Made by a program: the position numbers and the translations under genes. The notes under the pieces were generated by a model. It was not told the origin of the DNA. It saw only the letters and a program-made list of their open reading frames with translations, and made no database searches. This document shows positions 157-24,569 of a stretch of DNA of 50,093 nt, piece after piece. Source of the DNA: Marivivens sp. GTDB lineage: Bacteria > Pseudomonadota > Alphaproteobacteria > Rhodobacterales > Rhodobacteraceae. Where the stretch lies: the NCBI GenBank assembly GCA_024642145.1, contig JAHEBS010000001.1:1-50093 (forward strand), in the 5' to 3' direction. Position 1 is the first letter of the stretch; each line of letters begins with the position of its first letter.

Positions 157-3100
157 CTAGACCGAGGTGGGCAGGCGGGCGCGGACTTCGGCGACGATGG
201 CGTCAAAGTCGAGCCCGCGCTTGGAATAGAGCCCCTCGACCCAGCCTTCCAGACGGTGGCGGTCCTCGGCGGTCAGGGTTTTGGCGGTGACCACGATCAC
301 GGGAATGCCTGTCCATTCGGGTCGAGACCGGAAAATCTCGGCGAATTCGAAGCCGTCCATCTCGGGCATCATCAAATCCAGCAGCACCAGCCCCGGCGTT
401 ACCGTTTTCAGCCGTTCAAGCGCCACGCGGCCGTTTTCGGCCTCGACCACCGCCAGACCGTTTTCTGTCAGCGTCCGCGCCAAGAGCGCGCGGGTGTCGT
501 CGTCGTCCTCGACCACCAGAACACTGGCCCCGTCCTTGCCACTCAAGAGCCGCCGGATCGAGCCGACAAGCCGCGCGCGGTCGATGGGTTTGGTCAGATA
601 TTCCGAGGCCCCCAGTGAAAAGCCCAGTTTCTTGTCCTCGATGATGGTCACCATCACCACTGGGATGGATTCGGTTTCGGGCAGGGCCTTCAATTCGGCC
701 AGAACAGACCAACCATCGGTGGCCGGCATGATGACGTCGAGCGTGATCAACTGTGGCTGCTCGTCACGCGCCATGCGGATGCCGGTCTTGCCATCCGCAG
801 CCTCGACGGTGCGATAACCTGCGGCGTTCAGGTTGCGGCGCAGCAATTCGCGCACCACGGCGTCGTCGTCGATGATCAGGACAAGCGGTGCGGTATCCGA
901 GGCGGGCGCAGGCGCGGTTTCGACCACAGGCGCAGGCGCCAAGGCCGAAGCATCGGTCAGCACGGTCATGGTGAACGTCGTGCCTTTGCCAAGCTCGCTC
1001 ACCACCGTCAGATCGCCGCCCATCATGCGACAGAACTCGCGCGTGATGGTCAGCCCAAGCCCCGTCCCCCCGTATTTGCGCGAGGTCGATGCGTCTGCCT
1101 GCGTGAAAGGCTCAAAGACCTTTTTCAACTGCTCGGGCGACATGCCGATACCCTGATCGGACACATCGACCTGCAGCATCCTGCCCTTGTCCGTGGTCGA
1201 GATGGTCACGGTGATCAGACCGTTTTCACAGAACTTGGCGGCGTTGGACAAAAGGTTGAAAAAGTTCTGCTTGAACTTGGTAAGGTCGGTATTGATGGTC
1301 TTGCGCCGCGCGCGATTGTCGATTTCCAGCCGGTTGTGGTTCTTTTCCACCACAGGCTGAATGGTGTTGCAGACGTCCTCCAGCAACTCGGACAAGGCGA
1401 ATTCTTCGACATAAAGCTCTAGCTTGCCCACCTCGATCTTGGACAGATCGAGGATATCGTTGATCAGCCCCAGAAGATGGCGGCCCGCCTTCTGGATCTT
1501 TTCAAGATCCGGCACATAGGCCTCTTCGCCATCGTCGGTGACCTCATCGATCAGCAGTTCGGAATAGCCGATGATCGCGTTCAACGGGGTGCGTAACTCG
1601 TGGCTCATATTAGCCAGAAACTGGGATTTGGCCGAATTGGCCTGAATGGCCGCATCACGGGCAACGGCCAGTTCCTTGACCAGTGCGTCCAGCTCTTCCT
1701 CGTGGTGTTTGCTTTCGGTCATGTCGGTCCAGATCGACACGATCCCGCCTTCACGCGTCTCGAATCCTTCCGAGCGGTACCAACGACCGTCGGCGTTGCG
1801 ATCCAGCGAACTCCGCACTTTCTGGGTGCGTCGGCTGCGCAGGACTTGCTGGCGCCATGCCTCGAGGTCCTCTTCCGAGTCGAAACTACGATAGGGGTTT
1901 TTCGAACGGCGGAAGAAGCTCTCGAATGTCTCGCCGATCTGGAATTCCTTGCCGTCCAGCAGCAGCGCGCGCATATGGCCGCGGGCCTTTTTGTTGATGG
2001 CCACCAACCGGTCTTCGCTGTCGTAGAGGGCAAAGCCCTGATCCATCGCCTCTAGCGCGTCGGTCAGGCGCTGGTGGGCAAGTTCGGTTTCGCGGGCCAG
2101 CCGCGCCAGCACCTCTTCGTGCTTTTTCTCTTCCGAGATGTCGGTAAAGACCGACACCGTGCCACCATCCACCGTGGCAAAGCCTTCGGATCGCATCCAG
2201 CGCCCCGACGGGGTCTGGTCGGTTGAAAGGCGGGTCTTGTTCGCGGCGCGGTTCTTCAACACGCGCTCGACCCATTCGCGTCCCTCTTTCCTTGTCTTGA
2301 TATGGTGCATGTGATGCGACGCTTTTTCGGTCAGATCGGCAAAAAAATCGCCTTCCACCATGCGGTATCCGCCGGTGAAATCTGCCATCAGATCGCTGGC
2401 GCGCTGGTTGAACAGCAGCACCCTGTCGTCCTTGTCGTACAGGATGATGGCCTGCCCCATCGCCTCGATCGCATCCATCAATCGCCGGTGCGCGATTTCC
2501 GCATCCTCCGCCAAAGCGGCGAGTTCGGCCTCGTGTTTCTTGGCCTCGGTGATGTCGGTAAAGACCGAAACCGTGCCCCCGTCAGACGTGGGGAACCCTT
2601 CAGATTGAAACCAGCGCCCCGAAGGCAGCAGGTCTGACGACAGCCTGACTTTCTGTGTGCGTCGTGTATGCAGAACCTTTTGAATCCACGCCTCTTTTTC
2701 TTCGTCGCTTCTGTCGCCCTGCATCAACCTGGCCGACTGCCGAAGCCCCATTTCAAAGGGTTGGCCAATCTGGGGCCGCGCGCCGCCGGTAAAGTCGGTA
2801 TAGATGTCCCGATACGAGCGGTTGAACAGGACAATCCGGTCGTCGGAATCAAAGAGAACGATCGCTTGCCCCACGGCCTCGACCGCGTCCATCAGTCTTT
2901 GGTGCGCGGCGGCCGCCTCTTCGCGGCTACGGGCGACCTCTTTTTCGGCTATGGTTCGTTCGGCCACCGACCCCAGCAGCGTGCCGACATGACCCAAAAC
3001 CTCGATGATATCGACATTTGCATGGGTAGGTTCGCGGGCAAAGAACTCCAGCACACCGACAACGCCCTCGTGCAGGACGACGGGAAAGGCCATGGCCGCG

Positions 3101-4191
3101 CTCAGGCCTGCTTCGCGGCAAAAGGCCTTGCGGCGGAAGGCACGGTCCCTCGAGACGTCTTCGATCCAGACCGGACGGCGCGCCTTGACCGCGCGACCGG
3201 GCAGCCCGTCCTTGGCGTCGAACCGCATGCTCTCGACCGCCTGACGCAGACGCGACATCCCCTGTTCATGTTCGATATGCCAGATACCGGTGGGCGTCAG
3301 ATGAACGGTTCTGCCCTCGGTCTTGGCGACATAGGCATGGCCGACCGACCAGCCGGTGAACATGCAGATCTCGTGCAACGCCGTCTGCAGCGCGGTTTCA
3401 AAACTTGTCGCGCTGTTGGCGGCCAGAACGATATTTTGCAGCAGCCGCACCGACGCGGTCCGTTCCGCCACCCGACGTTCCAATTCGTCATTGGCGTGTT
3501 GCAGGTCTTCCTTGGCGGCAAGTTCGGCGGTGATATCGCGGCCATAGACGTTGATATAACCCGCGTCCTTGATAAAGCCGAAGTTCAAGAGATAGGTCTG
3601 CCCGCTTTCGCAGTGGTATTCGGTGGTGCGGTTCTCGCCCGTGGCCACGACCTCATCAATCAAATCGGCCAAGGCCGAACTCAGGCGCTCTTGGGGACGG
3701 GTTTCCACCAGCCCGATGATTTTGCGCGCCGCGGCATTGGCCAGCAAAATCGCGCGATCGGGGCGGATGCGCACGACGGGGTTGGGGTTTTCCAGAGGAA
3801 AGCGTGCAGCCTCGGCCACGTCCTTTTCCGCGGCACGGACCTGTGTGACGTCGCGCAGATAGGCATTCACATAACCGCGGTCGGCCAGCGGATTGAACAG
3901 CGCGTTATAGATGCGGCCATTGGCGTGGATGTCGATGCGGCGCTGTTGGCCCGATTTGAGCGCCGCAGCCGCCTCGCGGGCGACCTTGGTCGCGGCCTTG
4001 GTCCCCTTGGCGGCCAAAAGCTCGCTCGCCTCTTTGGTGGCGGCGTTGGCATAAAGGATCTTGCCCGCGGCACCCACGCGAAAGATGGGATAGGGGCTTT
4101 CCTCGACGATACCGACTAGCGAGAGGTCTTGCCCCTCGTCCGCGGTCGCTTTGGTCATTTTGGCCATAGGTTGCTCCGACGCCCGCCCCAC
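157..4191 (-). CDS. Large hybrid sensor histidine kinase: two N-terminal PAS-like units, a GAF-like region, three tandem PAS-like units, HisKA, HATPase and two receiver domains
   Basis: A 1344-aa ORF. The H-box is [18 protein letters not shown]. The ATPase N/G boxes are LLSNAAKF and DQGIGM...GGTGLGLTI. The two REC domains are LVLIIDDD...TLDVIMP...YLTKP and VLVVEDDDD...[11 protein letters not shown]...VVTAK. The start could also be the MAKM codons a few residues downstream. Confidence 0.9.
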
Positions 4192-4199
4192 CGAGGGGG

Positions 4200-6167
4200 T
4201 CAGGTCGATTTGAATCCGATCTTGAGGTGCGTGTTATCGCAGAAGGGTTTGTTCGAGGAACCGCCGCAACGGCACAGCCGGACCGAGGTCAGGCGATCCA
4301 CGGTCCGCCCTGTTCCGGTGATGATTTCCAGATTGCCGTCGATCTGCAAGGGTCCATCCTTTTCGGGGCGGATCGCCAGCACATCACCACGGATCTTGAG
4401 CGGTTCCGAGGGGCGGGTATCGGGTTCGCCGCTGGCACTGAACCCGATTTCCTTGTGCGAGCCGTCACACCACGGCTTGTTCTTGGACGCGCCGCAGCGA
4501 CAAAGCGTGGCGCGGAAACCATCGCTCTTGCCGTCGATCTCGATGGTGGCGTTGACCGCATAGGGGCCGTTCTCGCGCAGCCGGATCGTATTGACCTGCG
4601 GCGCAGGTTCGGGCGGCAGATCGCCCTTGGGCGTATAGCTGATGGCCCCCGAGGGGCAGGTGACGCATACCGTGCGCAGGGCACCCGTCTCCATGGTTTC
4701 GGGATGCAGCCACGGTCCGACCACATTGGCCAAAAACACCTCGGGCGCGCCCAACACGCAATGGCGGGCATGGATGCAGCGCTGGGTATCGAAATGCAGC
4801 GTCAGGTCCTTGGCCTCGGCGCTTTCGGGCGCGTTGGCGGCCGCCGGATCGGTGGCCAACTCGCGCTTGCCCGAGGGCAGATCGTCGTGGACGATCTTGG
4901 CTTTCGGTGCGCGGGTTCCGGCGGCGGGGGGCGTGATCTTGTCGCCGATTTCCTCGATCTTGTCGGCAAGCTTGGACAGTTCATGGCCTTGGGGAAAGAA
5001 ATGGCGGCAATGGGCCACGATCTCATGGGTCCGCTCGGCCAGAACCAAGGGTTCGCTGTCGCCCAAGGGCAGGCGCTGAATATCACGGGCAAGGGTAAAG
5101 CTCATTCCCGCGGTGACACCGGGATATTCGGGGCCAGCGGGCAGGCTTGCCAGATACTCGCCCACCGGCATCAAAAGCCGCATCAGGTGGCGAGCCTGAT
5201 CGACATAGAGCTTTTTGGCGGCCTTGTTGGCGCTATCGCGCCCCCATGACTGCGCCAGAAAGCGCAACATCAGGTTATAAAGCGCATTGCCCAGATCCAT
5301 GGCGCGCAGCGCCTCGGGGTTTGTGACCAAAACGCAGCCTTCGTCCATATCCGTCAGACGGGGCCGCGGATTGCGGGCGACCGGATGGGCCGGTGCGAAG
5401 GTGGGGTCCGCCGCCATCATGGCGGCGAGTTCGTCTTTTACCGCCAGAAAGGCGTTATAGTGGCTGTCCTCGGAATGGGCCGGTGCGCCCTCGCCCTGTT
5501 CGACGATTGTCTCGATCGCATCATGGGCCGATGCCAGATCGGTCACGACCTTCAGCCCCGGCAAGGCGGCATCGCCCGGCCCGATCTGTTCATCGACGGT
5601 GCCACAGAACAGCGACTGGGCGCCGTAACGACGGTTAAGCACCTCGAACCCGTGGTAAATCCCGCGATAGAGATGCCCGATGGTTTGATAATCCTGCGCC
5701 GAGGGCATGATGGCGCCTTTGGGCATGGCGCGGTGATAGTCGTCAGGGCGGATGAACTCTGGCGCGTCGCTCATCTCCATGCCCTCGGGGCGTTCCAGAT
5801 AGATGGCGTGATCGACCAATGCGGGCGAAAAACCCACCAATTCCAGATCGATACCCGCCGGATGATAACCGGCGCGGATCGGGAATTCGGGCCGCGACAG
5901 ATGCGGCGTGCCACCGATGGCCGTCACCAGATTGCCGACAATGGTCAGATGCGTCATCTCTTCGATGGCGACATTCAACATGGCGTTTTTCCAACGCTTG
6001 ACGGTCGCCGCCTGCGCGGGTGTCAGCCCGTCGCGCTCGCCGCGCTTGAGGCTCCATATCCCGTAAAGATAGCAGCACATCACGTTGTGTTCGATCGCTG
6101 CCGCTTCGGCCAGCATATAGATCAGCTCTTCGCGATCACCGATCCTGAGGCGTGCTTCTTCGGTCAT
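4200..6167 (-). CDS. Ferritin-like domain protein fused to a divergent 4Fe-4S mono-cluster region and two CDGSH iron-sulfur domains
   Basis: The start is set at the ATG at 6167 ([13 protein letters not shown]...), preceded by AGGGAG. The N-terminal part has ferritin-like helices ([25 protein letters not shown]). The Cys-rich middle reads [13 protein letters not shown]...[12 protein letters not shown]. The C-terminus has [17 protein letters not shown] and [17 protein letters not shown]. The stop at 4200 lies 8 nt before the kinase start at 4191. Confidence 0.8.
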
Positions 6168-6236
6168 ATCCGCCGCTCCCTTTGGGCCGACTCTGCCCCA
6201 AACCGCCCCTGCGGAGCAAGGAATTAGCGTGGTTGC

Positions 6237-6246
6237 GCCACGTGGC
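6237..6246. promoter_or_regulatory. Perfect 10-bp palindrome GCCACGTGGC in the divergent intergenic region; candidate operator
   Basis: Read directly from the sequence. An upstream CGTGG (6228-6232) can also pair with CCACG (6238-6242). It lies between the divergent starts at 6167 (-) and 6276/6303 (+). Confidence 0.25.
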
Positions 6247-6275
6247 TTTTCGTTGAGTTTCCCCCACCCTTCCCT

Positions 6276-8033
6276 ATGCTGACCCGAAACGAGGACCGGG
6301 GAATGCCCTTGATGACAACTGCCCCAGAGCCCCAGACTCCCCCTCTGGCCGAGGTTGCCTTTGCCGTGGGCGTGACAGGTCATCGCAACCCGCGTGCCGA
6401 GGATATCACGACCCTGCGCGCGCAGGTCGGGGCCGAGCTTGCAGCCCTGCGTCGGCATCTGGATGGCACGCCCGTGGTGCTGATGACCGGTCTGGCCGCT
6501 GGTGCCGATATGCTGGCCGCCGAGGCCGCAATCGATGCGGGCATTGGCGTCGACGCGGTGCTGCCCATGCCGCGCACCGCCTATGAGTCCGATTTTTCAG
6601 CGGCCGAGCTGGCCGCGTTTTGCGAGATCGTCCGCAATCCGCTGGTGCGGGTGCGGGAAATTCCGCTGGCGCCGAGTGTGACGCCCGAGGCGCTGGCCCG
6701 CGATCAGGCCCTGCGCGACGCGCAATACGCGCGGCTTGGCGATTATTTACGCCGTCGTTCGAACCTGATGATCGCGCTTTGGGACGGGGCCCGCACCGAA
6801 CTGACCGGCGGAACGGGCGAGGTCGTCTTGGGTTATCTGGCTGACGCCACCGAGGGGCATATTGCCGAAATGGCCAGCGCCGCCGCGCCGGACGATTGCG
6901 GCAACGTGGTGGCGTGGATTGCGACCCCGCGCGCAGGATCGGGACAAAAGACCGGACCTACGCGGTATCTGGTTTCGACCGCGAACCATGACTGTTACGC
7001 GACCTTTGACAGCCCCCCCGCCGCCGTCATCCGCCGCTGGGAGGCGATGGCCGCGTTTCACGACGATCTGGCCTCGTCACAGGGCCGGAACCTGACGGCC
7101 TATCCCTTGGGTGACGCACCCTCGCCCGATCTGGCGGCCATTGACCTGCTGTATCAGCGCGCCGACCAATTGGCCCGCGCGGCACAGGACATGTCGAACC
7201 GGCTTTTCCGCTATTTCGCGCTGATCGCAGGGGCCATGGGGCTTGCGTTTCTGGCCTATGCCAAGCTCTGGGCCGAACCCGCCTTTCTGGTGGTCTATGT
7301 CTTGCTGTTCTTTGCGGGCTATGCGGGTTTCCGGTTTTCGGCGCGGATGCATCTGCATGGCCGCCATCTGGCCTGCCGCGTTCTGGCCGAAACCCTGCGG
7401 GTGCAGTATTTCCTGACCCTATCGGGCGCAGGCGCCGCCTATTCGCTGCGCCGCCTTCTGGATCTGACCAGTGTCGCGCGGTTCGAGCGTTTCGAATGGT
7501 TGCCCGAGGCGTTGCGCGCCGCCGAACCGCTGGTCTATGACCCGCCAACGGGCGACGAAGACGCCATTGCACGGGTGCGCGGCGACTGGATCGTTGACCA
7601 GCGCGACTATTTTTCGCGCAAGCTTCATAAGCTGCATCACGAACATGAACGGCTGGCGCGGTTCAAAACCGCCCTGCTCGGTGGGTCGGTTCTGGGGGCG
7701 CTTGCGCTGATTTTCATGATGGACGAATTGCATCACATGGAAATGGCGGGCCATGACGGCAAGGTCTGGCTGGTGTTCCTGATGGGGCTCTTGCCGCTTT
7801 GGGCCGCGATCTGGGAACTTTATCACGGCAAGATGGCCACCCGCGAACTGCTTTGGCAATACGCCAATCAGCGCCGGTTCTTTGCCACGGCTGAAACCGA
7901 AATCGCCATGGCAAAAGGCCCCGAGGCCGAACGCAAGGTGATCCGTGATCTGGCTGACAAGGCGCTGATCGAAATTTACCTTTGGTCTGTCCACCGGTTC
8001 CACCGTGAACACGAACCCCCTTCGGCAGGATAG
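6276..8033 (+). CDS. Membrane protein with an N-terminal SLOG-like (LOG/DprA/YpsA-type Rossmannoid) domain fused to two SLATT-like helix-plus-2-TM modules
   Basis: A 585-aa ORF. The N-domain motifs are VGVTGHR, TGLAAGADMLAAEAA, ALWDG and TGGTGEVV (the last resembles the LOG-type GGxGT motif). There are four predicted TM helices at about aa 312-329, 335-353, 465-482 and 497-515. Each pair is preceded by a charged helix (YQRADQLARAAQ... and DQRDYFSRKLHKLHHEHERL). The alternative start ATG at 6303 has a better GAGGA spacing. Confidence 0.6.
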   Translation: MLTRNEDRGMPLMTTAPEPQTPPLAEVAFAVGVTGHRNPRAEDITTLRAQVGAELAALRRHLDGTPVVLMTGLAAGADMLAAEAAIDAGIGVDAVLPMPRTAYESDFSAAELAAFCEIVRNPLVRVREIPLAPSVTPEALARDQALRDAQYARLGDYLRRRSNLMIALWDGARTELTGGTGEVVLGYLADATEGHIAEMASAAAPDDCGNVVAWIATPRAGSGQKTGPTRYLVSTANHDCYATFDSPPAAVIRRWEAMAAFHDDLASSQGRNLTAYPLGDAPSPDLAAIDLLYQRADQLARAAQDMSNRLFRYFALIAGAMGLAFLAYAKLWAEPAFLVVYVLLFFAGYAGFRFSARMHLHGRHLACRVLAETLRVQYFLTLSGAGAAYSLRRLLDLTSVARFERFEWLPEALRAAEPLVYDPPTGDEDAIARVRGDWIVDQRDYFSRKLHKLHHEHERLARFKTALLGGSVLGALALIFMMDELHHMEMAGHDGKVWLVFLMGLLPLWAAIWELYHGKMATRELLWQYANQRRFFATAETEIAMAKGPEAERKVIRDLADKALIEIYLWSVHRFHREHEPPSAG

Positions 8034-8035
8034 CC

Positions 8036-9487
8036 ATGGCAGAGACGGGCGAGGACAACGCTGGCTTCGAGATTAGACTGGGCAACCTGCGCCATGATCT
8101 GCGGACGCCCATCGGCCATATCACCGGCTATGCCGAACTGATCGAGGAGGACCTTGATGAGGCGGGGCGGGTCGCCTACGGGCCGGACCTGTCGGCCATT
8201 CTCGGGGCCGGACAGCGGATGCTGGGCATCATCGACCAGCATCTGACCGGCCCGCGCCACACCATCGAAGACATCGACCTGCAGGAGGCGCAATTCGCGC
8301 TGCGCCTGCACCTCAACCATATCGCAGGCTATACCGAGATTCTGCGTGAAGAGGCGGTCGACCGTGGCGATGATGCACTGGTTGCCGATCTCGACCACAT
8401 CAACAGGGGCAAACAGGACCTGCTGGCCCTGATCGAAGACATGGCGACCCGTCTGAGCGAGGATGGCGCGACCCCCGCCGACAAAGCCAAGACCGAGGAG
8501 CCCGAGGATGTTTTGTCCACCATCGTCGGCGTGGGTGGCGAGATTCTTGTGGTCGATGACGATGCGGCCAACCGCGAATTGCTGACGCGCCGTTTGGCAC
8601 GTGGCGGCTATAGCTCGACGGCGGTGTCCTCGGGCCAAGAAGCGCTGGACGCACTGGCCCAGCACCGCTTTGACCTCGTGTTACTCGACATGAAGATGGA
8701 GGGGCTTTCCGGCCTCGAAACGCTGCACCAGATCAAGGCCAATGCCCGCCTGCGTGCGGTGCCCGTCATCATGCTGTCGGCCGGAGATGATACGGCCCAA
8801 ATGGTGCAGACAATCCTTGCCGGAGCCGAGGATTACGTCGTCAAACCCTTTAACCCCGTCCTCTTGATCGCGCGCATCAACGCCTGCCTTGAAAAGATCC
8901 GCCTGCGCCAGAACGCGGCCCGCCAGATCAAGGTCTTTATCTCGTCCCCCGGCGATGTGATCCCCGAACGCCAGATCGCCAAAATGGTGCTTGGCCGCCT
9001 GAACGAGGAATACTCGGGACGCCTGTTGTTGGTGCCGATCTTGTGGGAGGAAGAGCCTCTCTTGGCCTCCGATACGTTTCAGGCGCAGATACACCCGCCA
9101 CATGAAACCGACATCTACCTCGGGATCTTGTGGTCCCGCATCGGCTCGCCCCTGCCCGCCTCCATCCGCCGTGCGGACGGGTCGCAGTATGAAAGCGGGT
9201 CGGTTTTCGAATTCGAGGACGCGCTTGAGGGGTTTCGCGCCTGTGGACGGCCCCAGATGCTGCTCTACCGCAAGGACGGAGCGCCGCAGGTTTCCTTGGC
9301 CGACAGGAACGACGTTCTGGACAGGCTGGACCAGATGGACAAGCTGCAGTCCTATCTGCAGACCAACCTCACAGGTGACGATGGTTCATATGTGGCGGCC
9401 TTTCACACGTTTCGTGGCGCGGCCGAGTTTGAAAGCATGATCGAAACCCATCTGCGCAAGCTGGTGCAGAAGTTCCTGACCGCCTGA
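8036..9487 (+). CDS. Response-regulator-type protein: two DHp/HisKA-like H-box segments without an ATPase domain, a receiver domain, and a C-terminal TIR-like (DUF4062-type) domain
   Basis: A 483-aa ORF starting 2 nt after the upstream stop. The H-box-like segments are LRHDLRTPIGHITGYAELI and LRLHLNHIAGYTEILRE. The REC domain reads ILVVDDD...LVLLDMKMEGLSG...YVVKPF. The C-terminal domain (aa about 298-415) reads IKVFISSPGDVIPERQ...LWEEEP...DIYLGILWSRIGSP...SVFEFEDAL...PQMLLYRK. This matches the DUF4062 pattern as I remember it (vFiSS..D...ER / E / D.y..i...R.GS / TE.E...A). Confidence 0.65.
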   Translation: MAETGEDNAGFEIRLGNLRHDLRTPIGHITGYAELIEEDLDEAGRVAYGPDLSAILGAGQRMLGIIDQHLTGPRHTIEDIDLQEAQFALRLHLNHIAGYTEILREEAVDRGDDALVADLDHINRGKQDLLALIEDMATRLSEDGATPADKAKTEEPEDVLSTIVGVGGEILVVDDDAANRELLTRRLARGGYSSTAVSSGQEALDALAQHRFDLVLLDMKMEGLSGLETLHQIKANARLRAVPVIMLSAGDDTAQMVQTILAGAEDYVVKPFNPVLLIARINACLEKIRLRQNAARQIKVFISSPGDVIPERQIAKMVLGRLNEEYSGRLLLVPILWEEEPLLASDTFQAQIHPPHETDIYLGILWSRIGSPLPASIRRADGSQYESGSVFEFEDALEGFRACGRPQMLLYRKDGAPQVSLADRNDVLDRLDQMDKLQSYLQTNLTGDDGSYVAAFHTFRGAAEFESMIETHLRKLVQKFLTA

Positions 9488-9553
9488 ACCTGCCCGCGAT
9501 TGCGCCAAAGCCAAGCCGCGACTAGACTTGAGGAAATTGACGGGAAATCTGCA

Positions 9554-9919
9554 ATGCCACTTATTCTGCTGGTCGAAGATAACGAGATGAACCGTGATAT
9601 GCTGTCGCGGCGGCTTCTCAAACGCGGGTTCGAGTTGCAGATCGCCGTCAACGGGCAGGAGGGCGTCGATATGGCGCTGTCTGGCAGCCCCGATCTGATC
9701 TTGCTGGATATGTCGCTGCCGATCATCGACGGTTGGGAGGCCGCACGGCAGATCAAGGCAGATCCCAAGGGCAAGGCCATTCCGATCATCGCGCTGACCG
9801 CGCATGCCATGGCGGGCGACCGTGAAAAGGCGATGGCCGCAGGTTGCGACGATTATGACACCAAGCCCGTGGACCTTGCGCGGCTTTTGGAGAAAATCAG
9901 CGCCCTGATCGGCGGCTGA
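9554..9919 (+). CDS. Single-domain CheY-like response regulator (receiver only)
   Basis: The start is set at the ATG at 9554 (MPLILLVEDNEMNRD...); the track ORF begins at a non-ATG codon at 9500. The acidic pocket is VEDN, the phospho-acceptor context is LILLDMSLP, and ALTAH and DDYDTKP are conserved. Confidence 0.85.
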   Translation: MPLILLVEDNEMNRDMLSRRLLKRGFELQIAVNGQEGVDMALSGSPDLILLDMSLPIIDGWEAARQIKADPKGKAIPIIALTAHAMAGDREKAMAAGCDDYDTKPVDLARLLEKISALIGG

Positions 9920-9929
9920 ACGGGCTGGC

Positions 9930-10958
9930 ATGGCCGAGGACGCAACACCCCAAGACGCAACCAAACTCCGCGCCGCGCTCTTGGCGGGCGGGGCCGAGGC
10001 TACGGCGGCGCGCAAGGCGCTGCTGGGCGGCAATGGCACCCTGCGGCAGGCCGATTTCGCGGAATGCGATCTGGCGGCGCGCGATCTGTCTGATCTGGAC
10101 CTGCAGGGCGCCGATTTCTTTGGCGCTGACCTGTCAGCGGCCAACCTCAAGATGGCCAAGTTGACCGGAGCCGAACTGGCCCATACTCGCCTGCACGCCA
10201 CCGCGCTCTACAAGGCGGAACTCACGGGCGCCATTTTGCTCGAGGCCGATCTGGAAGGGGCGGACCTGTCGGAATGCCATGCGCGGGGCGCTGATTTCCG
10301 CGGCGCGCGACTCGCCAATGCCAAGCTTTGCGGCGCCGATCTGCGCGATGCCGATTTTTCTTTGGCCGATCTCAGCGGCGCCGACCTCAGCGGCGCCGAT
10401 ATCGGTGGCGCGCGCATGACGGCCGCCCAGATCGACGGCGCCAATGTCAGCCGCCTGCGCTATGGCGGGTATCGCAAGATGAGCGGGCTTTATAACGGGA
10501 TCCGTGGCGTCGATCAGACCTTTGGCAATGCGCTTTTCGTGCGCGACGCCAAGGATCAGGATTATATCGACACGCTCGGGCAGGCGATCCAGGACATGGC
10601 GCCCGGACCGATCAGAATGCTGGAACAGGCCATGTTCCGGCTATGGGGCCTGATCGACCATGGGCGCAGTCTGTTGAAGGTCTGGCTATATGCCCTTGGT
10701 ATTGCGACACTTTATGGGCTTTTGTATTTGGCGGACATGTCGAACGACTGGGGGATCATGGATTATTCCACCTCGGCCAATACATGGTTCACGCCGTTCT
10801 ACTATTCGGTCGTGACCTATACGACACTGGGCTATGGCGATGTGACTGCCGATAGTCTGTTGGGCGAGATGTTGGTGGTGAGCGAAGTGGTGATCGGCTA
10901 TTTCACCTTGGGGCTTTTACTGGCGATCTTGGCCAATACCATCGCCCGTCGCAGCTAG
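9930..10958 (+). CDS. Pentapeptide-repeat domain fused to a 2-TM potassium-channel pore domain
   Basis: A 342-aa ORF. It has about 25 consecutive A(D/N)LxX-type pentapeptides (ADFFGADLSAANLKMAKLTGAEL...ADLSGADLSGADIGGARM). The C-terminus has TM1 (VWLYALGIATLYGLLYL), a pore helix plus selectivity filter (FYYSVVTYTTLGYGDV) and TM2 (VVSEVVIGYFTLGLLLAIL). Confidence 0.85.
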   Translation: MAEDATPQDATKLRAALLAGGAEATAARKALLGGNGTLRQADFAECDLAARDLSDLDLQGADFFGADLSAANLKMAKLTGAELAHTRLHATALYKAELTGAILLEADLEGADLSECHARGADFRGARLANAKLCGADLRDADFSLADLSGADLSGADIGGARMTAAQIDGANVSRLRYGGYRKMSGLYNGIRGVDQTFGNALFVRDAKDQDYIDTLGQAIQDMAPGPIRMLEQAMFRLWGLIDHGRSLLKVWLYALGIATLYGLLYLADMSNDWGIMDYSTSANTWFTPFYYSVVTYTTLGYGDVTADSLLGEMLVVSEVVIGYFTLGLLLAILANTIARRS

Positions 10959-10988
10959 GGCAGCCCCCCCACCACCGCTGATTCCCGC

Positions 10989-11021
10989 AAAAAATGGCGC
11001 CCGATACACTGGCGCATTTTT
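10989..11021 (+). terminator. Rho-independent terminator closing the four-gene operon
   Basis: The sequence is AAAAAAT(G)GCGCC-CGATACACT-GGCGCATTTTT. The GC stem has one bulge and is followed by a T5 run, 31 nt after the channel gene stop. Confidence 0.6.
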
Positions 11022-11227
11022 GTCACGCCATGGTCATCATATCGCAACCTTTGGATGCAAATCTGTAGACAATCCCATGCGATGGGTTCGTTCTATACGT
11101 GAGCCATAACGACGGTTGGCCGCTTCTCCCTCGGTCAGCCGAACCTGAAATGCCAGTGGGCACGGCCGCTTCCTCCCCGGTGACGACCCACTGGTTTTTT
11201 CTTGCCCGTCCGCTAGGCTCGGCCCCC

Positions 11228-16349: not shown

Positions 16350-18686
16350 TTACTGGCCGGTCTGTTGCCGCATCTGGCGATCAACCGTTTCGGTCAACTC
16401 GGTCAGCGAGAACGGCTTTTGCAAGAAAACCGACTGCGGGATCAGCGACTGGTTTTCGCCAAAGGCGTCTTCGGCATAGCCCGAGACAAACACCACCTGC
16501 ATCGCCGGATGGTGTTTGAGCGCGATCCGCACCCAGCTCGGGCCATCCAGCCCCGGCATGATCACGTCACTGACAATGACATCGACGTGCAACTCGGGGT
16601 CGCGCAGGGCCTCGAGCGCCGCCTCGCCGCAATCGGCCTCGACGACTGAATAGCCCCGCAGCGCCAAGGCGCGGGAGGCGAATGAACGCACAGGCGCCTC
16701 GTCCTCGACCAAAAGCACCACCCCGCCCCGCGGGCCAGCGATCATCGGTTTGGGCAGTCCCTTGTCTGGCAGGGACAGCGCCTCGGGCGAAACCGCTGTT
16801 TCACGGTCCAGTGCCGGCAACAGAATGCTGAACCGCGCACCGGCACCGATCTGGCTGTCGACAAAGATGAAACCGCCGGTCTGTTTGACGATGCCATAGG
16901 CGGTGGACAGGCCCAGCCCCGTGCCCTCACCGACGCGTTTGGTCGTGTAGAAGGGTTCAAAAATCTTGGCCATTTTCTCGGGCGCGATGCCGTGGCCCTC
17001 ATCCGCGACGGTAACCCGCACATAGCGACCGGCAGGCACCGTGGCGCGGTCACGTTCCATGGGTTCCGCCAGATCAAGGTTTTCGGTGCCGATGGTAATC
17101 TGCCCACCCTCGGCCATGGCATCGCGGGCATTGACCACAAGGTTCATGATGACCTGTTCAATCTGCCGCCGATCCGCGCGCACGGGCGCAAGTTCGGGAT
17201 CATGCACCAGATCAAGCGTGATCCGCTCGCCCACCAAACGGTTCAAGAGATGCGTCAGATCCGCCAGCGTATCGCGCAGATCAACCACCTGAAGCTGCTG
17301 GTTCTGCTTGCGTGAAAAAGCCAGCAATTGGCCGACCAAGGCCGCGGCGCGGTTGGCATTGTGATGGATCTGCACAAGATCGGCAAAGTCACCATCGCTT
17401 TGATCGTGGCGCAGCAACAGCAGGTCGCAATGGCCCGAAATAGCGGTCAGCAGGTTGTTGAAATCATGTGCGATTCCACCCGCCAACTGGCCAATCGCCT
17501 GCATTTTCTGGCTTTGGACAAACTGTGCCTCCAGCGCCTTAAACTCGGTGACGTCGTTCAGGACCCCGATCAGGACCTGCCCGTCATCCTCTTGCGCGCG
17601 GTTCAGCGTCAATTGCACGAACAGGTCCTGACGCACGCCCGCGCCTCGCAGAAATTGCGGCCCGCCCTGCCCGCGCCCCGCGCATGTGTCGCGCAGCCAA
17701 TCGATCATTGGCCGTCCCAAGCCTTCCAGCAGATCCGATAGCCTCAGCCCGTCAACGGCGCCAATCTGCAAGAGCGTCCGCGCCTCGCGGTTGGCCTCGG
17801 CCAGCGTGCCATCGGGGCGGATCTTGAGCAAAGGCACAGGCAGCACCTCGATCTCGGTCCAGTGCGGCGGCGCCTCGGCGGCGTCGGTTGGCAAAAGATA
17901 TATCTCGCGCCGCGCACCGGCGCCGCCAAGCTCGGCCACAAGCCACCGCGTGACCTCGCGCTCGCCCTGCACATCCAGGATCTGGCCCGACCGCACGGTC
18001 TGATCGCCGAAGATCTGACCCAGTCCCTTGACCCGCCCCCCGACCAACTGGCGGAAAGCCGGATTCATATAGAGGACCGTGCCCGTGGCCCCCGCCGTCA
18101 GCATCGGCAGGTTCAAGGCATCGCTTGGCCGCGTTTCCTGCAACTCGGCAACCTCGTCGATCCGCCAGAGAAACCGCCCTTCGCCAGCGGGTTGGGCCGC
18201 GACGACCATATGGCCGCGACGGGTCGTGACCTCTTCTTGGGCCGCGCCTTCGCCCAGCGCCTTTTGTTGCAGCCGGTAAAGCAGCGCGGTCGGGTTGGTG
18301 ATCTGGTCGGCAAGCAAAAGCGGCAGATCGGCGGCTCCGGCCTGCGCCGCGCTATTGGCAAAAAGGATCAGCCCGTTCTCGTCAGCCAGATAGGCAGGCC
18401 CGCTTAGCCCTTGGGCCAAGAGGCGGGCGGCCTCGTTGCGGATGCCATCGGCAAAGCGCCCCCGCCAACGCGCCACGGCGCCAGCGCCCGCCACCAGCCC
18501 CAAGGCAAGTGCCGCCAAGACCAGCGCGATCGAGGCAAAAAGCGGTGCCACCAATAGCCCTGCCGCGGCGGCCAGAAGGGCCGCAGCCAGCATCACATCC
18601 GCGCGTGGCAAGCGCGCGAGTGTCGGCCCGATTGGCAGCATCCCGATTGGTGACTGGTCGGACACCCTGATCCTCTCGCCTTTCAT
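16350..18686 (-). CDS. Membrane-bound PAS-containing hybrid histidine kinase with a C-terminal receiver; CckA-like
   Basis: A 778-aa ORF with an N-terminal hydrophobic pair. The H-box region is [32 protein letters not shown]. The ATPase motifs are [16 protein letters not shown] and GTGLGLST. The REC domain reads [11 protein letters not shown]...[11 protein letters not shown]...FLQKPF. The DHp sequence resembles CckA as I remember it, but this is not proven. Confidence 0.88.
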
Positions 18687-19934: not shown

Positions 19935-22246
<2,312 letters not shown>

Positions 22247-22329
22247 CCGGCACATCAAATGACGCAAGACGGCTGCCCGCCCGCCCGACACAAGCTATTC
22301 TGAACAAGCGCAAACCAAAGGCCTGCCCC

Positions 22330-24369
22330 ATGAAGAACGATCCCCTCGTGATCTTTACCCCCTCGGGCAAGCGGGGTCATTTTCCTGCGGGCACGCCGGT
22401 TCTGACCGCCGCGCGCCAGTTGGGCGTGGACCTCGACAGCGTCTGCGGCGGGCGCGGGATCTGTTCGAAATGCCAGATCACGCCCGCCTACGGCGAGTTC
22501 CCCAAGCATGGCGTCACCGTAGCCGAAGGCGCGCTCAGCGAATGGAATGCGGTCGAGGACCGCTATGACCGCATCCGTGGTCTGCCCAAGGGGCGACGGC
22601 TGGGTTGTCAGGCGCGGATCGAGGCCGATGTGGTCATCGACGTGCCCCCCGAAAGTCAGGTCCACCGTCAGGTCGTCCGCAAGGCCGCGACCCAGCGCGA
22701 CATCATCATGGACCCCGCGACCCATCTTTACTACGTCGAGGTGGCCGAGCCCGACATGCACATCCCCTCTGGCGATTTCGAGCGGCTCAAGGATGCGCTG
22801 ACCGCCCAATGGCAGATCGGCGAGGTCACGGCCCCGCCCTCGGTCATGCGTCGCTTGCAGCCCGTGCTGCGCAAGGGCAACTGGACCGTCACCGTCGCGC
22901 TGCACCGCAAGCGCGCGGGCGGGCCTGCCGAAATCCTCGATATCTTTCCAGGCTTCCACGAGGGCCGCATCTACGGGCTTGCCGTTGACGTGGGTTCGAC
23001 CACCATCGCCGCCCATCTTTGCGATCTGCGTAATGGCAATGTGCTGGCCTCGGCTGGCGTCATGAACCCGCAGATCCGATTTGGCGAAGACCTGATGAGC
23101 CGCGTCAGCTATGCCATGATGAACCCCGGTGGCGACGCCGAGATGACCAAGGCCGTGCGCGAGGCCATTGACGGTCTGGCGCGGTCCATCGCCGCCGAAG
23201 GCGGGATCGAGGCGAACCAGATCGTCGAAATGGTCTTTGTCTGCAATCCGGTCATGCACCACCTGCTTTTGGGGATCGACCCCGTTGAACTGGGTCAGGC
23301 GCCCTTTGCCTTGGCCGTCAGCGAGAGCCTTGATCTTGAGGCCCGCGATCTGGACCTTGGCGCGGTCAATGCCGAGGCGCGGATCTATATCCTGCCCTGT
23401 ATCGCAGGCCATGTGGGTGCAGACGCCGCCGCGGTGGCCCTGTCCGAAGAACCCAACACATCGCCCGACATGGTGTTGATTGTCGATGTGGGCACCAATG
23501 CCGAGATCCTTTTGGGCAACCGCAGCCGTGTTCTGGCCTGTTCCTCGCCCACGGGGCCCGCATTCGAGGGCGCGCAGATCTCGTCCGGCCAACGCGCGGC
23601 GCCCGGCGCCATCGAAAGGGTCGAGATCGACCCCGTGACCAAGGCGCCACGTTTCCGCGTGATCGGCTTTGACATCTGGTCTGACGACCCCGCCTTTGCC
23701 ACCGCAACGGCAGGGATCGGCATTACCGGCATTTGCGGTTCCGGCATCATCGAGGCCGTCGCCGAACTGCGGCTTGCGGGGCTTTTGGATGCGCGCGGGC
23801 TGATGGGGTCGGCGGAACAAACCGGCTGCGACCGCATGATCCCCGAAGGCCGGACGCATTCCTACCTTTTGCATGACGGCACGGCACAGGGCGGTCCGCG
23901 CATCATGGTGACCCAAGGCGATATCCGCGCCATCCAACTGGCCAAGTCCGCGCTCTATGCCGGCGCGCGACTTTTGATGGACGAGATGGGCGTTGATCAG
24001 GTCGATCGCGTCGTTCTGGCCGGTGCCTTTGGCGCCCATATCTCGCCCAAGCACGCCATGGTTCTGGGGATGATCCCCGATGTGGCGCTGGACAAGGTGA
24101 TCTCGGCGGGTAACGCCGCAGGCACGGGCGCGCGCATCGCGCTCAGTTCGCTCGCCGCGCGGCGGGCGATCGAGCAGACGGTGGGCGAGATCCATAAGGT
24201 CGAGACCGCCATCGAGCCGCGTTTCCAAGAACACTTTGTCAACGCCAATGCCATTCCCCATGCGGTGGACCCCTTCCCGCATCTGCGCAGCATTGCCAGC
24301 CTGCCGGATGTCAATTTCAACGCCAATGGCGGTGGCGGCGAGGGTGGGCGCAGGCGGCGACGCGGGTGA
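22330..24369 (+). CDS. 2Fe-2S ferredoxin domain fused to an ASKHA-fold ATPase (RACo/AcsV-like corrinoid activation protein, DUF4445-type)
   Basis: The start is set at the ATG at 22330 (MKNDPLVIFTPSGKRG...). The plant-type ferredoxin Cys pattern is CGGRGICSKCQ...LGCQARI. The ASKHA phosphate motifs are YGLAVDVGSTTIAAHL and LIVDVGTNAEI. Confidence 0.8.
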   Translation: MKNDPLVIFTPSGKRGHFPAGTPVLTAARQLGVDLDSVCGGRGICSKCQITPAYGEFPKHGVTVAEGALSEWNAVEDRYDRIRGLPKGRRLGCQARIEADVVIDVPPESQVHRQVVRKAATQRDIIMDPATHLYYVEVAEPDMHIPSGDFERLKDALTAQWQIGEVTAPPSVMRRLQPVLRKGNWTVTVALHRKRAGGPAEILDIFPGFHEGRIYGLAVDVGSTTIAAHLCDLRNGNVLASAGVMNPQIRFGEDLMSRVSYAMMNPGGDAEMTKAVREAIDGLARSIAAEGGIEANQIVEMVFVCNPVMHHLLLGIDPVELGQAPFALAVSESLDLEARDLDLGAVNAEARIYILPCIAGHVGADAAAVALSEEPNTSPDMVLIVDVGTNAEILLGNRSRVLACSSPTGPAFEGAQISSGQRAAPGAIERVEIDPVTKAPRFRVIGFDIWSDDPAFATATAGIGITGICGSGIIEAVAELRLAGLLDARGLMGSAEQTGCDRMIPEGRTHSYLLHDGTAQGGPRIMVTQGDIRAIQLAKSALYAGARLLMDEMGVDQVDRVVLAGAFGAHISPKHAMVLGMIPDVALDKVISAGNAAGTGARIALSSLAARRAIEQTVGEIHKVETAIEPRFQEHFVNANAIPHAVDPFPHLRSIASLPDVNFNANGGGGEGGRRRRRG

Positions 24370-24379
24370 CAGTTGCCGC

Positions 24380-24408
24380 TTGACGGGGCCTTGGTCGCCC
24401 CATATCTC
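24380..24408 (+). promoter_or_regulatory. Sigma70-type promoter candidate for tRNA-Gly
   Basis: TTGACG (24380-24385), a 17-nt spacer and TATCTC (24403-24408). The tRNA 5' end lies 10 nt downstream of the -10 element. Confidence 0.45.
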
Positions 24409-24417
24409 AGGCCTTAG

Positions 24418-24491
24418 GCGGGTGTAGCTCAATGGTAGAGCGAGAGCTTCCCAAGCTCCAGACGAGGGTTCGATTCCCTTCACCCGCTCCA
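24418..24491 (+). tRNA. tRNA-Gly (anticodon CCC)
   Basis: The structure reads GCGGGTG-TA-GCTC-AATGGT-AGAGC-G-AGAGC-TTCCCAA-GCTCC-AGAC-GAGGG-TTCGATT-CCCTT-CACCCGC-T-CCA. It is 74 nt and close to the E. coli tRNA-Gly(CCC) layout. Confidence 0.9.
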
Positions 24492-24569
24492 CTTTCTCGC
24501 TCACGGTTGCTCTGGCGCCTGCCTGCCTTGCGGGCTAAGCCTTTGGCGTCAAGCGAGAGGAGACATTCC

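Follow-up and report, generated by a model that had tools for sequence, protein, structure and literature searches.

Gene content of the locus

A stretch of 50,093 nucleotides from Marivivens sp. (GenBank assembly GCA_024642145.1, contig JAHEBS010000001.1, positions 1-50,093, forward strand), here called the window, carries an operon of four open reading frames (ORFs) on the plus strand that combines signal transduction domains with membrane proteins. ORF1 (6276-8033, 585 aa) encodes a SLOG-SLATT membrane protein. ORF2 (8036-9487, 483 aa) joins a pair of DHp-like hairpins, a receiver and a NIR/DUF4062-like domain. ORF3 (9554-9919, 121 aa) is a single-domain receiver with an alternative upstream TTG start at 9500, and ORF4 (9930-10958, 342 aa) is a pentapeptide-repeat potassium channel. 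The genes are tightly packed, with intergenic gaps of 2, 66 and 10 nt, as described in the original prediction, a reading of the DNA that preceded this analysis.

That reading also had the operon end at a hairpin with a run of five T. A hairpin with an A-tract and a T5 tract is present at about 10987-11023 (+) and is a possible operon terminator, as judged from sequence and folding energy, but it is thermodynamically weak. Its folding energy of -12.7 kcal/mol is statistically undistinctive (z = -1.1 versus shuffles), and the loop of 9 nt places it outside the rules of the terminator scanner. No sigma-70-like promoter was found for the operon.

SLOG and SLATT domains of ORF1

The start of ORF1 chosen by the gene caller is probably M10 at position 6303. 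An AlphaFold2 model built on 60 relatives had a predicted local distance difference test score (pLDDT) of 91 and a predicted template modelling score (pTM) of 0.89. It comprises an alpha/beta domain (residues 29-266) followed by two copies of a long helix with two transmembrane (TM) helices. Four hydrophobic segments in the hydropathy profile agree with two such modules.

The alpha/beta domain covers residues about 25-266 (6348-7073, +). It carries the motifs T34-G35-H36-R37, A74-x-G76-A77-D78 and W169-D170-G171...G178-G179-T180. Across the 60 relatives, these loop motifs (TGHR, AxGAD, WDG...GGT) show little or no variation. A Foldseek search of the PDB with the model returned SLOG members as top matches: YpsA (2nx2; E = 8e-4, probability 1.00, TM-score on target 0.61), DprA (3uqz, 4ljk, 3maj), ShosA (8zva) and the LOG-like proteins 1rcu and 1weh, together with a Moco carrier (2iz7). 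At the level of the predicted structure, the SLOG fold of the N-terminal domain is confirmed. ThsA was not among the top 50 structural matches in the PDB, which places the domain on the YpsA/DprA-like side of the superfamily. TRPM2 and TRPM8 appeared as low-probability matches. In profile searches, ORF1 alone gave sub-threshold SLOG matches to YAcAr (E = 0.02; 15.1 bits, cutoff 28.2), ShosA (E = 0.011) and DprA (E = 0.063). When the 60 relatives were scanned singly, 23/60 matched DprA and 20/60 YAcAr (E <= 0.01).

The first SLATT module consists of a long helix (residues 284-331) and the TM helices 335-358 and 360-383 (7125-7424, +). The second has a helix at 427-480, TM helices at 495-520 and 522-545 and a C-terminal helix at 549-578 (7554-8009, +). 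Both are defined by the model, hydropathy and hidden Markov model (HMM) matches of the relatives. The ORF1 protein itself has no match to SLATT/DUF4231 profiles. The C-terminal halves of its relatives match NCBIfam SLATT_1 (13/60, best E = 2.1e-9), SLATT_3 (11/60) and Pfam DUF4231 (10/60), and several orthologs are named 'SMODS and SLOG-associating 2TM effector domain' in UniRef. The SLATT identity of the C-terminal half is supported by these matches across relatives. The SLOG motifs and the two helix-plus-2-TM modules read from the translated sequence are thus both present.

Candidate phosphotransfer, receiver and NIR-like domains of ORF2

The AlphaFold2 model of ORF2 (pLDDT 88.5) begins with a helical domain (residues 1-140; 8036-8455, +), whose helices 4-39, 42-70, 82-109 and 113-134 form two DHp-like hairpins. 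HisKA matches residues 16-68 (E = 4.9e-10). Two H-box segments lacking an ATPase domain had been proposed here. Indeed no HATPase or other ATPase domain was found in ORF2 with Pfam, and the first segment is canonical: H20 lies within an RH[DE]LRTP H-box, is invariant in 52 ORF2 orthologs and, in alignment, falls on the phospho-His region of HK853. The second hairpin repeats the first at an offset of 67 residues and keeps R90, N94, H95, G98, Y99 and E101, but it is degenerate, with F87 (Phe/Tyr) at the position of the phospho-His. Paired in a single chain, the two DHp hairpins could fold as a monomeric four-helix bundle of the HPt kind. The N-terminus of ORF2 is a candidate HPt-like phosphotransfer module.

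The receiver (residues 166-294; 8531-8917, +) is defined by Pfam (residues 170-281, E = 3.5e-28), the model and conservation. The acidic pocket expected of a receiver is intact, as D174, D175 and D218 are invariant in the 52 orthologs and Ser/Thr248 is found in 51/52. In the model, the last receiver helix (274-294) continues directly into the first strand of the C-terminal domain.

This C-terminal domain (residues 295-483; 8918-9484, +) has five beta-alpha units (residues 296-482), modelled with high confidence, and is NIR/DUF4062-like, that is TIR-like. Experiments have shown DUF4062, since renamed NIR, to be a NADase of the TIR-like kind, whose catalytic Glu falls within residues 87-108 (bioRxiv 10.64898/2026.05.01.722283, 10.64898/2026.09.04.749371). 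The catalytic residue is E97 in KpSwz (bioRxiv 10.64898/2026.05.01.722283), E108 in PsAvs2, E98 in Vulcan and E103 in Vesta (bioRxiv 10.64898/2026.09.04.749371). In Eva01, the motif residues are F11 and E87-Y88 (bioRxiv 10.64898/2026.06.25.731849).

Compared alone with PF13271 (DUF4062), the ORF2 C-domain reached E = 0.012-0.05 and 16.3 bits, where the cutoff is 24.7. Its relatives match better: 32/36 at E <= 0.1 (best 7.7e-7), and among more diverse relatives 21/37 at E <= 0.01 (best 6.9e-11), with an nSTAND1 domain in 31/37. These matches support a place of the C-domain in DUF4062 at the family level only. Pfam TIR families (TIR_2, ThsB_TIR) matched neither the four operon proteins nor the C-domain relatives. 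The DUF4062/TIR-like assignment of the original prediction holds for the DUF4062 family-level matches and the F and E-aromatic motifs, but the domain is not a TIR in the Pfam sense. An exhaustive search with the C-domain yielded 4478 clusters at E <= 1e-3, mostly with the domain at the N-terminus of proteins of 1000-2300 aa.

Invariant residues of the NIR domain include F301, S303, S304, P305, D307, E311, R312, W337, E338, Q349, W366, R368, E392, F393, E394, Y411 and K413. F301, within the motif 'VFISSPGDV', and E392-F393 are invariant in 64 sequences, and the equivalent of E392 is also invariant in 37 STAND-type relatives. E392 (9209-9211) is the candidate catalytic Glu. Aligned by eye with Eva01 from plasmid pMW2, 'VFISS' (F301) corresponds to 'IFISS' (F11) and 'SGSVFEFEDA' (E392-F393) to 'SYTEMEYNFA' (E87-Y88). 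In hhalign, only the N-terminal 64 columns of the trimmed C-domain alignment aligned with Eva01 (E = 0.012, probability 3.5%). The correspondence of the catalytic motif therefore rests on the alignment by eye.

Lone receiver, potassium channel and hybrid kinase

ORF3 is a lone receiver, as predicted, with a Pfam match at E = 2e-24 and the phospho-acceptor D52 in place. ORF4 carries pentapeptide repeats in its N-terminal part (about residues 37-180, E = 2.4e-30) and a 2-TM potassium pore at about residues 240-342 (Ion_trans_2, E = 2.1e-10). The selectivity filter TTLGYGD occupies residues 298-304 (10821-10841). The proposed fusion of a pentapeptide-repeat protein to a potassium pore is borne out by both Pfam matches and the filter.

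The presumed input of the relay is a hybrid sensor histidine kinase of 1344 aa (157-4191, -). Pfam assigns it PAS, GAF, four PAS_7, HisKA, HATPase_c and two receiver domains. No HPt domain was detected with Pfam in this kinase or elsewhere in the cluster. The kinase had been regarded as divergently encoded. It is not directly divergent, since another gene (4200-6167, -) lies between it and ORF1 and makes the kinase the second gene upstream. The intervening gene encodes a ferritin-like iron-sulfur protein with Fer4_19, a divergent 4Fe-4S domain, and two CDGSH domains (Pfam). It also has a weak VioB-like match (E = 7.9e-18, far below the cutoff). This accessory neighbour is an uncertain member of the module, with a possible redox- or iron-sensing role.

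Conservation of the module

A profile of the C-domain was used to scan one genome per GTDB species. At least 555 loci were obtained, of which the best 80 were analysed; neighbourhoods were called from naive ORFs and with HMMs built from our own alignments. The receiver-type architecture (DHp-receiver-NIR) was present in 38/80 loci. Twenty of these were well flanked, with at least 4 kb on both sides. All 20 well-flanked receiver-type loci contain a hybrid kinase, 18/20 a SLOG-SLATT gene and 18/20 a lone receiver. The pentapeptide potassium channel is found in 14/20 and another potassium channel in five more, so that 19/20 have a potassium channel of some kind. Ammonium transporter (Amt) genes accompany 8/20, and a MscS channel with a cyclic nucleotide monophosphate (cNMP)-binding domain 4/20. 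The ferritin-like gene is present in 7/20 well-flanked and in 10/38 of all receiver-type loci.

Actibacterium pelagium has six genes identical in content and order to those of the window. In Shimia gijangensis, genes for Amt, kinase, pentapeptide potassium channel, MscS-cNMP channel, SLOG-SLATT and an ORF2-like protein run in one direction. A metagenome-assembled genome (MAG) of Neptuniibacter, a gammaproteobacterium, encodes SLOG-SLATT, an ORF2-like protein, a receiver, two Amt, a PilJ-like protein, a kinase and the pentapeptide potassium channel. One further genome combines GlnA, MscS-cNMP, SLOG-SLATT, an ORF2-like protein, a receiver and Amt. The sensor domains of the kinase are of the PAS/GAF or dCache/HAMP type. 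The expected co-occurrence was thus found in many genera and several phyla, but a constant gene order was not; the order differs between lineages. None of the genes flanking the operon in the window recurs beside the module elsewhere, and therefore the module itself is the conserved unit.

In MAGs of Planctomycetota and Krumholzibacteriia (L050:549-3061, L051:3355-6199 and L063:582-3064), the pentapeptide potassium channel gene directly precedes the DHp-receiver-NIR gene, with a 4-nt overlap in L050 and L063. A direct partnership of the potassium channel with the NIR protein is possible.

One or two Amt genes lie inside or beside the module in 13/38 receiver-type loci, sometimes with a glutamine synthetase or a MscS-cNMP channel (L003, L009/L024, L010, L026, L027, L029-L031, L039, L042, L044, L048, L049 and L054). 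The window has no Amt gene near the operon. The recurrence of Amt hints at a link of the module to ammonium and potassium homeostasis.

Some genomes hold several members of the NIR subfamily. A Rhodospirillaceae MAG has four loci of different architectures (L032, L033, L034 and L036), and Colwellia sp. 12G3 has two full receiver-type modules (L046 and L049).

NIR and SLOG genes in other architectures

In a further 38/80 loci, the same NIR subfamily is located at the N-terminus of long proteins, for example NIR-nSTAND1-TPR in L062. Nineteen of the long-protein loci were well flanked. A SLOG-SLATT gene lies about 2 kb downstream in eight of them and another SLOG gene next door in four (12/19). 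The association was also seen from the side of the sensor. Among seven distant ORF1 homologs (22-37% identity), four have a canonical TIR gene within two genes (L006, L007, L093 and the P0067 contig), and one more has a TIR gene at a distance of about 7 kb. Ion channels of the Ion_trans, Ion_trans_2, MscL and MscS types are neighbours of several distant homologs. Because it works in both directions and is independent of architecture, this association is the strongest evidence for a producer-receiver pair of a TIR-like and a SLOG protein. It defines a broader class of NIR-nSTAND1 proteins with SLOG(-SLATT) partners. The fusion partners of the NIR subfamily (receiver, cNMP-binding or STAND modules) are without exception assembly switches.

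Fusions of NIR with a cNMP-binding domain are short proteins of 324-330 aa (P0110-P0118, L011:5717-6709 and L033:9587-10576). Two such loci (L011 and L033) showed no SLOG gene in the flanks that were available. A 330-aa cNMP-binding protein of the Neptuniibacter locus L009 was considered as a further fusion and rejected, as it has no NIR HMM match.

A conserved protein of about 490 aa without a Pfam match is encoded between the NIR-nSTAND1-TPR and SLOG-SLATT genes at six loci (L062:13705-15165, L071:13907-15391, L060, L072, L075 and L076). This protein is a possible third component of the STAND-type system. At two unrelated loci (L069:13427-15148, minus strand, and L093:10735-12504), SLOG or TIR genes have as neighbours proteins of about 575-590 aa that combine TrkA_N (RCK) and RyR domains. 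In L093, the region upstream of the distant SLOG-SLATT homolog (1547-6978) encodes a SIR2_2-TIR_2 fusion, an nSTAND1 protein, an unassigned 661-aa protein and then a TIR-PDZ protein. Unlike the surroundings of the operon in the window, this region has the look of a dense conflict-type island.

Proposed mechanism

The original interpretation, a Thoeris-like generator and sensor controlled by a phosphorelay, is supported as far as computation reaches. In our estimate there is an even chance that the genes form a self-contained module in which a two-component phosphorelay switches on a TIR-like NAD+-cleaving domain and a membrane protein reads the product. The analysis shows the domain identities, the conserved residues and the joint conservation of the genes. 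From the domain content we infer the phosphotransfer routes, the enzyme activity, the identity of the signal, its binding by SLOG and the membrane effect as follows. The PAS/GAF hybrid kinase would autophosphorylate and pass the phosphoryl group to its own receivers. With no HPt domain in the kinase, the kinase-less H-box bundle of ORF2, with its invariant His20, would provide the histidine phosphotransfer step. The phosphoryl group would then be accepted by the ORF2 receiver (Asp218), by ORF3 (Asp52) or by both, completing a His-Asp-His-Asp relay. Phosphorylation would lead to dimerisation or oligomerisation of the ORF2 receiver and bring the attached NIR domains together. TIR and NIR enzymes are active only on assembly (bioRxiv 10.64898/2026.05.01.722283). 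The assembled NIR domain, with Glu392 as candidate catalytic residue, would convert NAD+ to ADP-ribose (ADPR) or a derivative. Binding of this product by the YpsA/DprA-like SLOG domain of ORF1 would change the state of the two SLATT modules and thereby alter membrane permeability. The ORF4 potassium channel could be a second membrane output or a partner, and ORF3 could act as a phosphate sink or channel regulator.

The system is probably a Thoeris-like generator/sensor pair under two-component control that is physiological rather than immune. Its role is likely the control of ion flux or membrane potential and not abortive infection. A more specific version is put forward tentatively: a NIR-made, NAD-derived messenger would be the two-component output and would gate a SLOG-SLATT conductance together with the potassium channel, in a non-immune pathway of the ADPR or cyclic ADPR (cADPR) type. 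In this version, the same NIR-SLOG producer-receiver pair would be reused with STAND sensors in conflict systems.

Several points weigh against a signalling module. Characterised NIR domains deplete NAD+ with ADPR and nicotinamide as the only products (bioRxiv 10.64898/2026.09.04.749371), and none is known as a signal maker. Characterised SLATT proteins are cell-killing effectors, and the STAND-type relatives look like conflict systems. Taken singly, the operon proteins do not reach the curated Pfam cutoffs for SLOG, SLATT and DUF4062, so that their membership rests on family-level matches. The TIR-like fold of the C-domain is a prediction of the model; when the full-length ORF2 model was searched against the PDB and viral structures, receiver and kinase matches filled both lists. 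A search of PDB sequences with the trimmed C-domain profile found nothing relevant. Two well-flanked receiver-type loci (L051 and L061) are without SLOG-SLATT, and none was seen within the available flank of L050, L051 and L063. Sampling is a further point, since the 80 analysed loci are the nearest to the query and many of them belong to MAGs.

Relation to known systems

The operon resembles Thoeris type I (ThsB TIR plus ThsA SIR2-SLOG) in the combination of a TIR-superfamily enzyme with a SLOG reader of an ADPR-derived signal. It differs in the generator, which is DUF4062/NIR and not a Pfam TIR, and in the input, which is a receiver in a phosphorelay where Thoeris senses phage. The SLOG domain is YpsA/DprA-like, the output is a 4-TM SLATT protein and not SIR2, and the setting is one of housekeeping genes. 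An effector with a signal-binding domain is present (ORF1, SLOG plus SLATT); a defence-island or mobile-element context was not found within the window. Because it has no Pfam TIR, a non-defensive context and a phosphorelay input, the operon is not regarded as a member of Thoeris.

Thoeris type VII combines TIR with the SLATT effector ThsH and uses cADPR as signal, and type X combines TIR with an ion channel (bioRxiv 10.64898/2025.12.03.692087). These types share with the operon a TIR-type generator and a SLATT effector or ion channel as output. ThsH is described by its SLATT annotation only, with no mention of SLOG, and ligand pockets are predicted between SLATT protomers (bioRxiv 10.64898/2025.12.03.692087). 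In ORF1, by contrast, a single chain holds a dedicated SLOG domain plus two SLATT modules. The operon also differs from types VII and X in having both a SLATT protein and a potassium channel, in its two-component control and in lying outside a defence island.

The NIR/DUF4062 effectors Avs2-NIR, Swarozyc, Vulcan, Vesta and Evangelion, as well as human TEP1, share the profile and the motifs (Phe in strand A, Gln, Glu-aromatic) with ORF2. The nearest relatives of the ORF2 C-domain sit as effectors at the N-terminus of nSTAND1/TPR proteins, an arrangement shared with Avs and NPHP3. The known effectors are terminal, NAD+-depleting and triggered by phage proteins, whereas NIR is located C-terminal to a receiver in ORF2. 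This position, together with the genomic coupling to a SLOG sensor, implies signalling rather than depletion. Receiver, SLOG or SLATT partners are unmentioned in the NIR preprints (bioRxiv 10.64898/2026.05.01.722283, 10.64898/2026.09.04.749371, 10.64898/2026.06.25.731849).

PleD is the top structural match of ORF2, through its receiver domain. In REC-GGDEF proteins of the PleD/WspR type, receiver dimerisation on phosphorylation activates an attached nucleotide-processing domain, as proposed for ORF2. The predicted output of ORF2 is a TIR-like NADase and not a diguanylate cyclase, and the messenger would be NAD-derived. TRPM2 has an N-terminal SLOG-like domain on a membrane conductance that is gated by ADPR. 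TRPM channels thus resemble ORF1 in the attachment of a SLOG-like domain to a conductance. This is an analogy with shared SLOG ancestry, not membership, and the membrane parts are unrelated (SLATT 2-TM modules versus a 6-TM TRP pore).

No description of this gene composition was found in the literature, although a brief mention in the original SLOG/SLATT paper is possible. Nothing relevant was found on TIR as a response-regulator output, nor on a cluster of pentapeptide channel, Amt and kinase. The claim that the composition is undescribed stands for the full set, but TIR with SLATT and TIR with an ion channel are already known from Thoeris VII and X. What is new is therefore limited to the phosphorelay control, the NIR generator and the non-defence setting. 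As read from the sequences, the distinguishing set would be the NIR generator, two-component control, a double-SLATT receptor, a co-conserved potassium channel and the non-defence setting.

Genomic setting and alternative explanations

The foremost alternative is an anti-phage, Thoeris-like abortive infection system. The kinase would sense infection or envelope damage, and the NIR signal would open a SLATT pore and kill or arrest the cell. Such a role accords with the characterised DUF4062/NIR proteins, all of which are anti-phage NAD+-depleting effectors (bioRxiv 10.64898/2026.05.01.722283, 10.64898/2026.09.04.749371, 10.64898/2026.06.25.731849), and with the composition of Thoeris types VII and X (bioRxiv 10.64898/2025.12.03.692087). 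The STAND-type relatives have an NLR/Avs-like architecture, and the non-syntenic placement of the module in several phyla would fit horizontal transfer. PADLOC matched no known defence system; its sole match was the candidate PDC-S60 to the ORF2 C-domain (E = 5.7e-7).

The setting argues for another role. The GC content of the window is about 60-67% and even, without a compositional break around the locus. Other genes of the window encode TfoX_C, Ndk, an ABC-F ATPase, MarC, glucokinase, a second hybrid kinase, RsmB and IMPDH, and near the operon, within the window, there was no sign of integrase, phage or other defence genes. A search of 2.9 million viral contigs gave no relative of the ORF2 C-domain. 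Across genera, ORF2 orthologs share 56-74% identity, unlike fast-diversifying defence genes. Housekeeping flanks, the lack of a PADLOC system and of viral relatives, and ORF2 ortholog conservation together point to a chromosomal signalling module rather than a defence island, a defence role being the less probable reading. Environmental sensor domains of the kinases (PAS/GAF or dCache/HAMP) and the recurrence of the module with ammonium transporters, MscS/cNMP channels and glutamine synthetase also speak against defence. An abortive infection system is considered unlikely.

The second hybrid kinase (16350-18686, minus strand, 778 aa) lies 5 kb downstream of the operon. It has HisKA, HATPase_c and receiver domains, and its N-terminal 400 aa are without a Pfam match at 1e-5. 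Elsewhere in the window, two long ORFs overlap on opposite strands (22255-24504, minus, 749 aa; 22213-24369, plus, 718 aa). The ORF on the minus strand has no Pfam match at 1e-5.

Somewhat less probable than defence is that NIR acts as a phosphorylation-controlled NAD+ consumer, a metabolic brake or a means of growth arrest, and that ORF1 is an independent transporter or an ADPR-processing SLOG enzyme. Known NIR domains, which yield only ADPR and nicotinamide, act by depletion (bioRxiv 10.64898/2026.09.04.749371). N-glycosidase enzymes occur among some SLOG clades (PMC9503650), and the GGT-x-[DE] motif of ORF1 resembles the catalytic motif of LOG. Against this reading, the adjacency of NIR and SLOG(-SLATT) in both receiver- and STAND-type loci and the pairing of SLOG-SLATT with canonical TIR fit a producer and a receiver. 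ADPR is also a known ligand of the SLOG-like domain of TRPM2, and therefore depletion and signalling are not mutually exclusive.

There is little to suggest that the C-domain lacks catalysis and serves for assembly or as an adaptor, as animal TIR adaptors do, recruiting or gating ORF1 or ORF4 by contact upon phosphorylation. The overlap of the potassium channel and NIR-protein genes in L050, where no SLOG-SLATT was found, and the similar loci L051 and L063 would suit such contact. At the Glu, Phe and Gln positions that match active-site motifs of DUF4062, sets of 64 and 37 diverse sequences show no variation, and conservation at this level (48-76% identity across phyla) is typical of an active site. 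An artefact of clustered signalling and transport genes with separate functions is scarcely credible: gene order varies and accessory genes (Amt, MscS, ferritin-like) come and go, but the core set persists through rearrangements, different flanks and classes or phyla, with gaps of 2-10 nt and some overlaps.

Biological implications

Bacterial TIR-type NAD+ chemistry is so far known only from immunity, with TIR domains as the source of Thoeris signals and NIR/DUF4062 domains as agents of NAD+ depletion. If the phosphorelay module is true, ORF2 would contain the first NIR domain under phosphorylation control. It would also be the first with a dedicated nucleotide-sensor partner, implying signal production over depletion, and the pair would be the first of its kind to lie in a chromosomal signalling cluster that is conserved and includes ion channels and often ammonium transporters. 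NAD-derived messengers would join the outputs of two-component systems, and SLATT would gain a regulated, non-lethal role. The operon would offer a tractable bacterial model of SLOG-gated conductance, analogous to the ADPR-gated TRPM2. It would also bear on whether housekeeping signalling gave rise to immune signalling or vice versa. The module suggests that an immune-type, NAD-derived signal is used for ordinary cell signalling.

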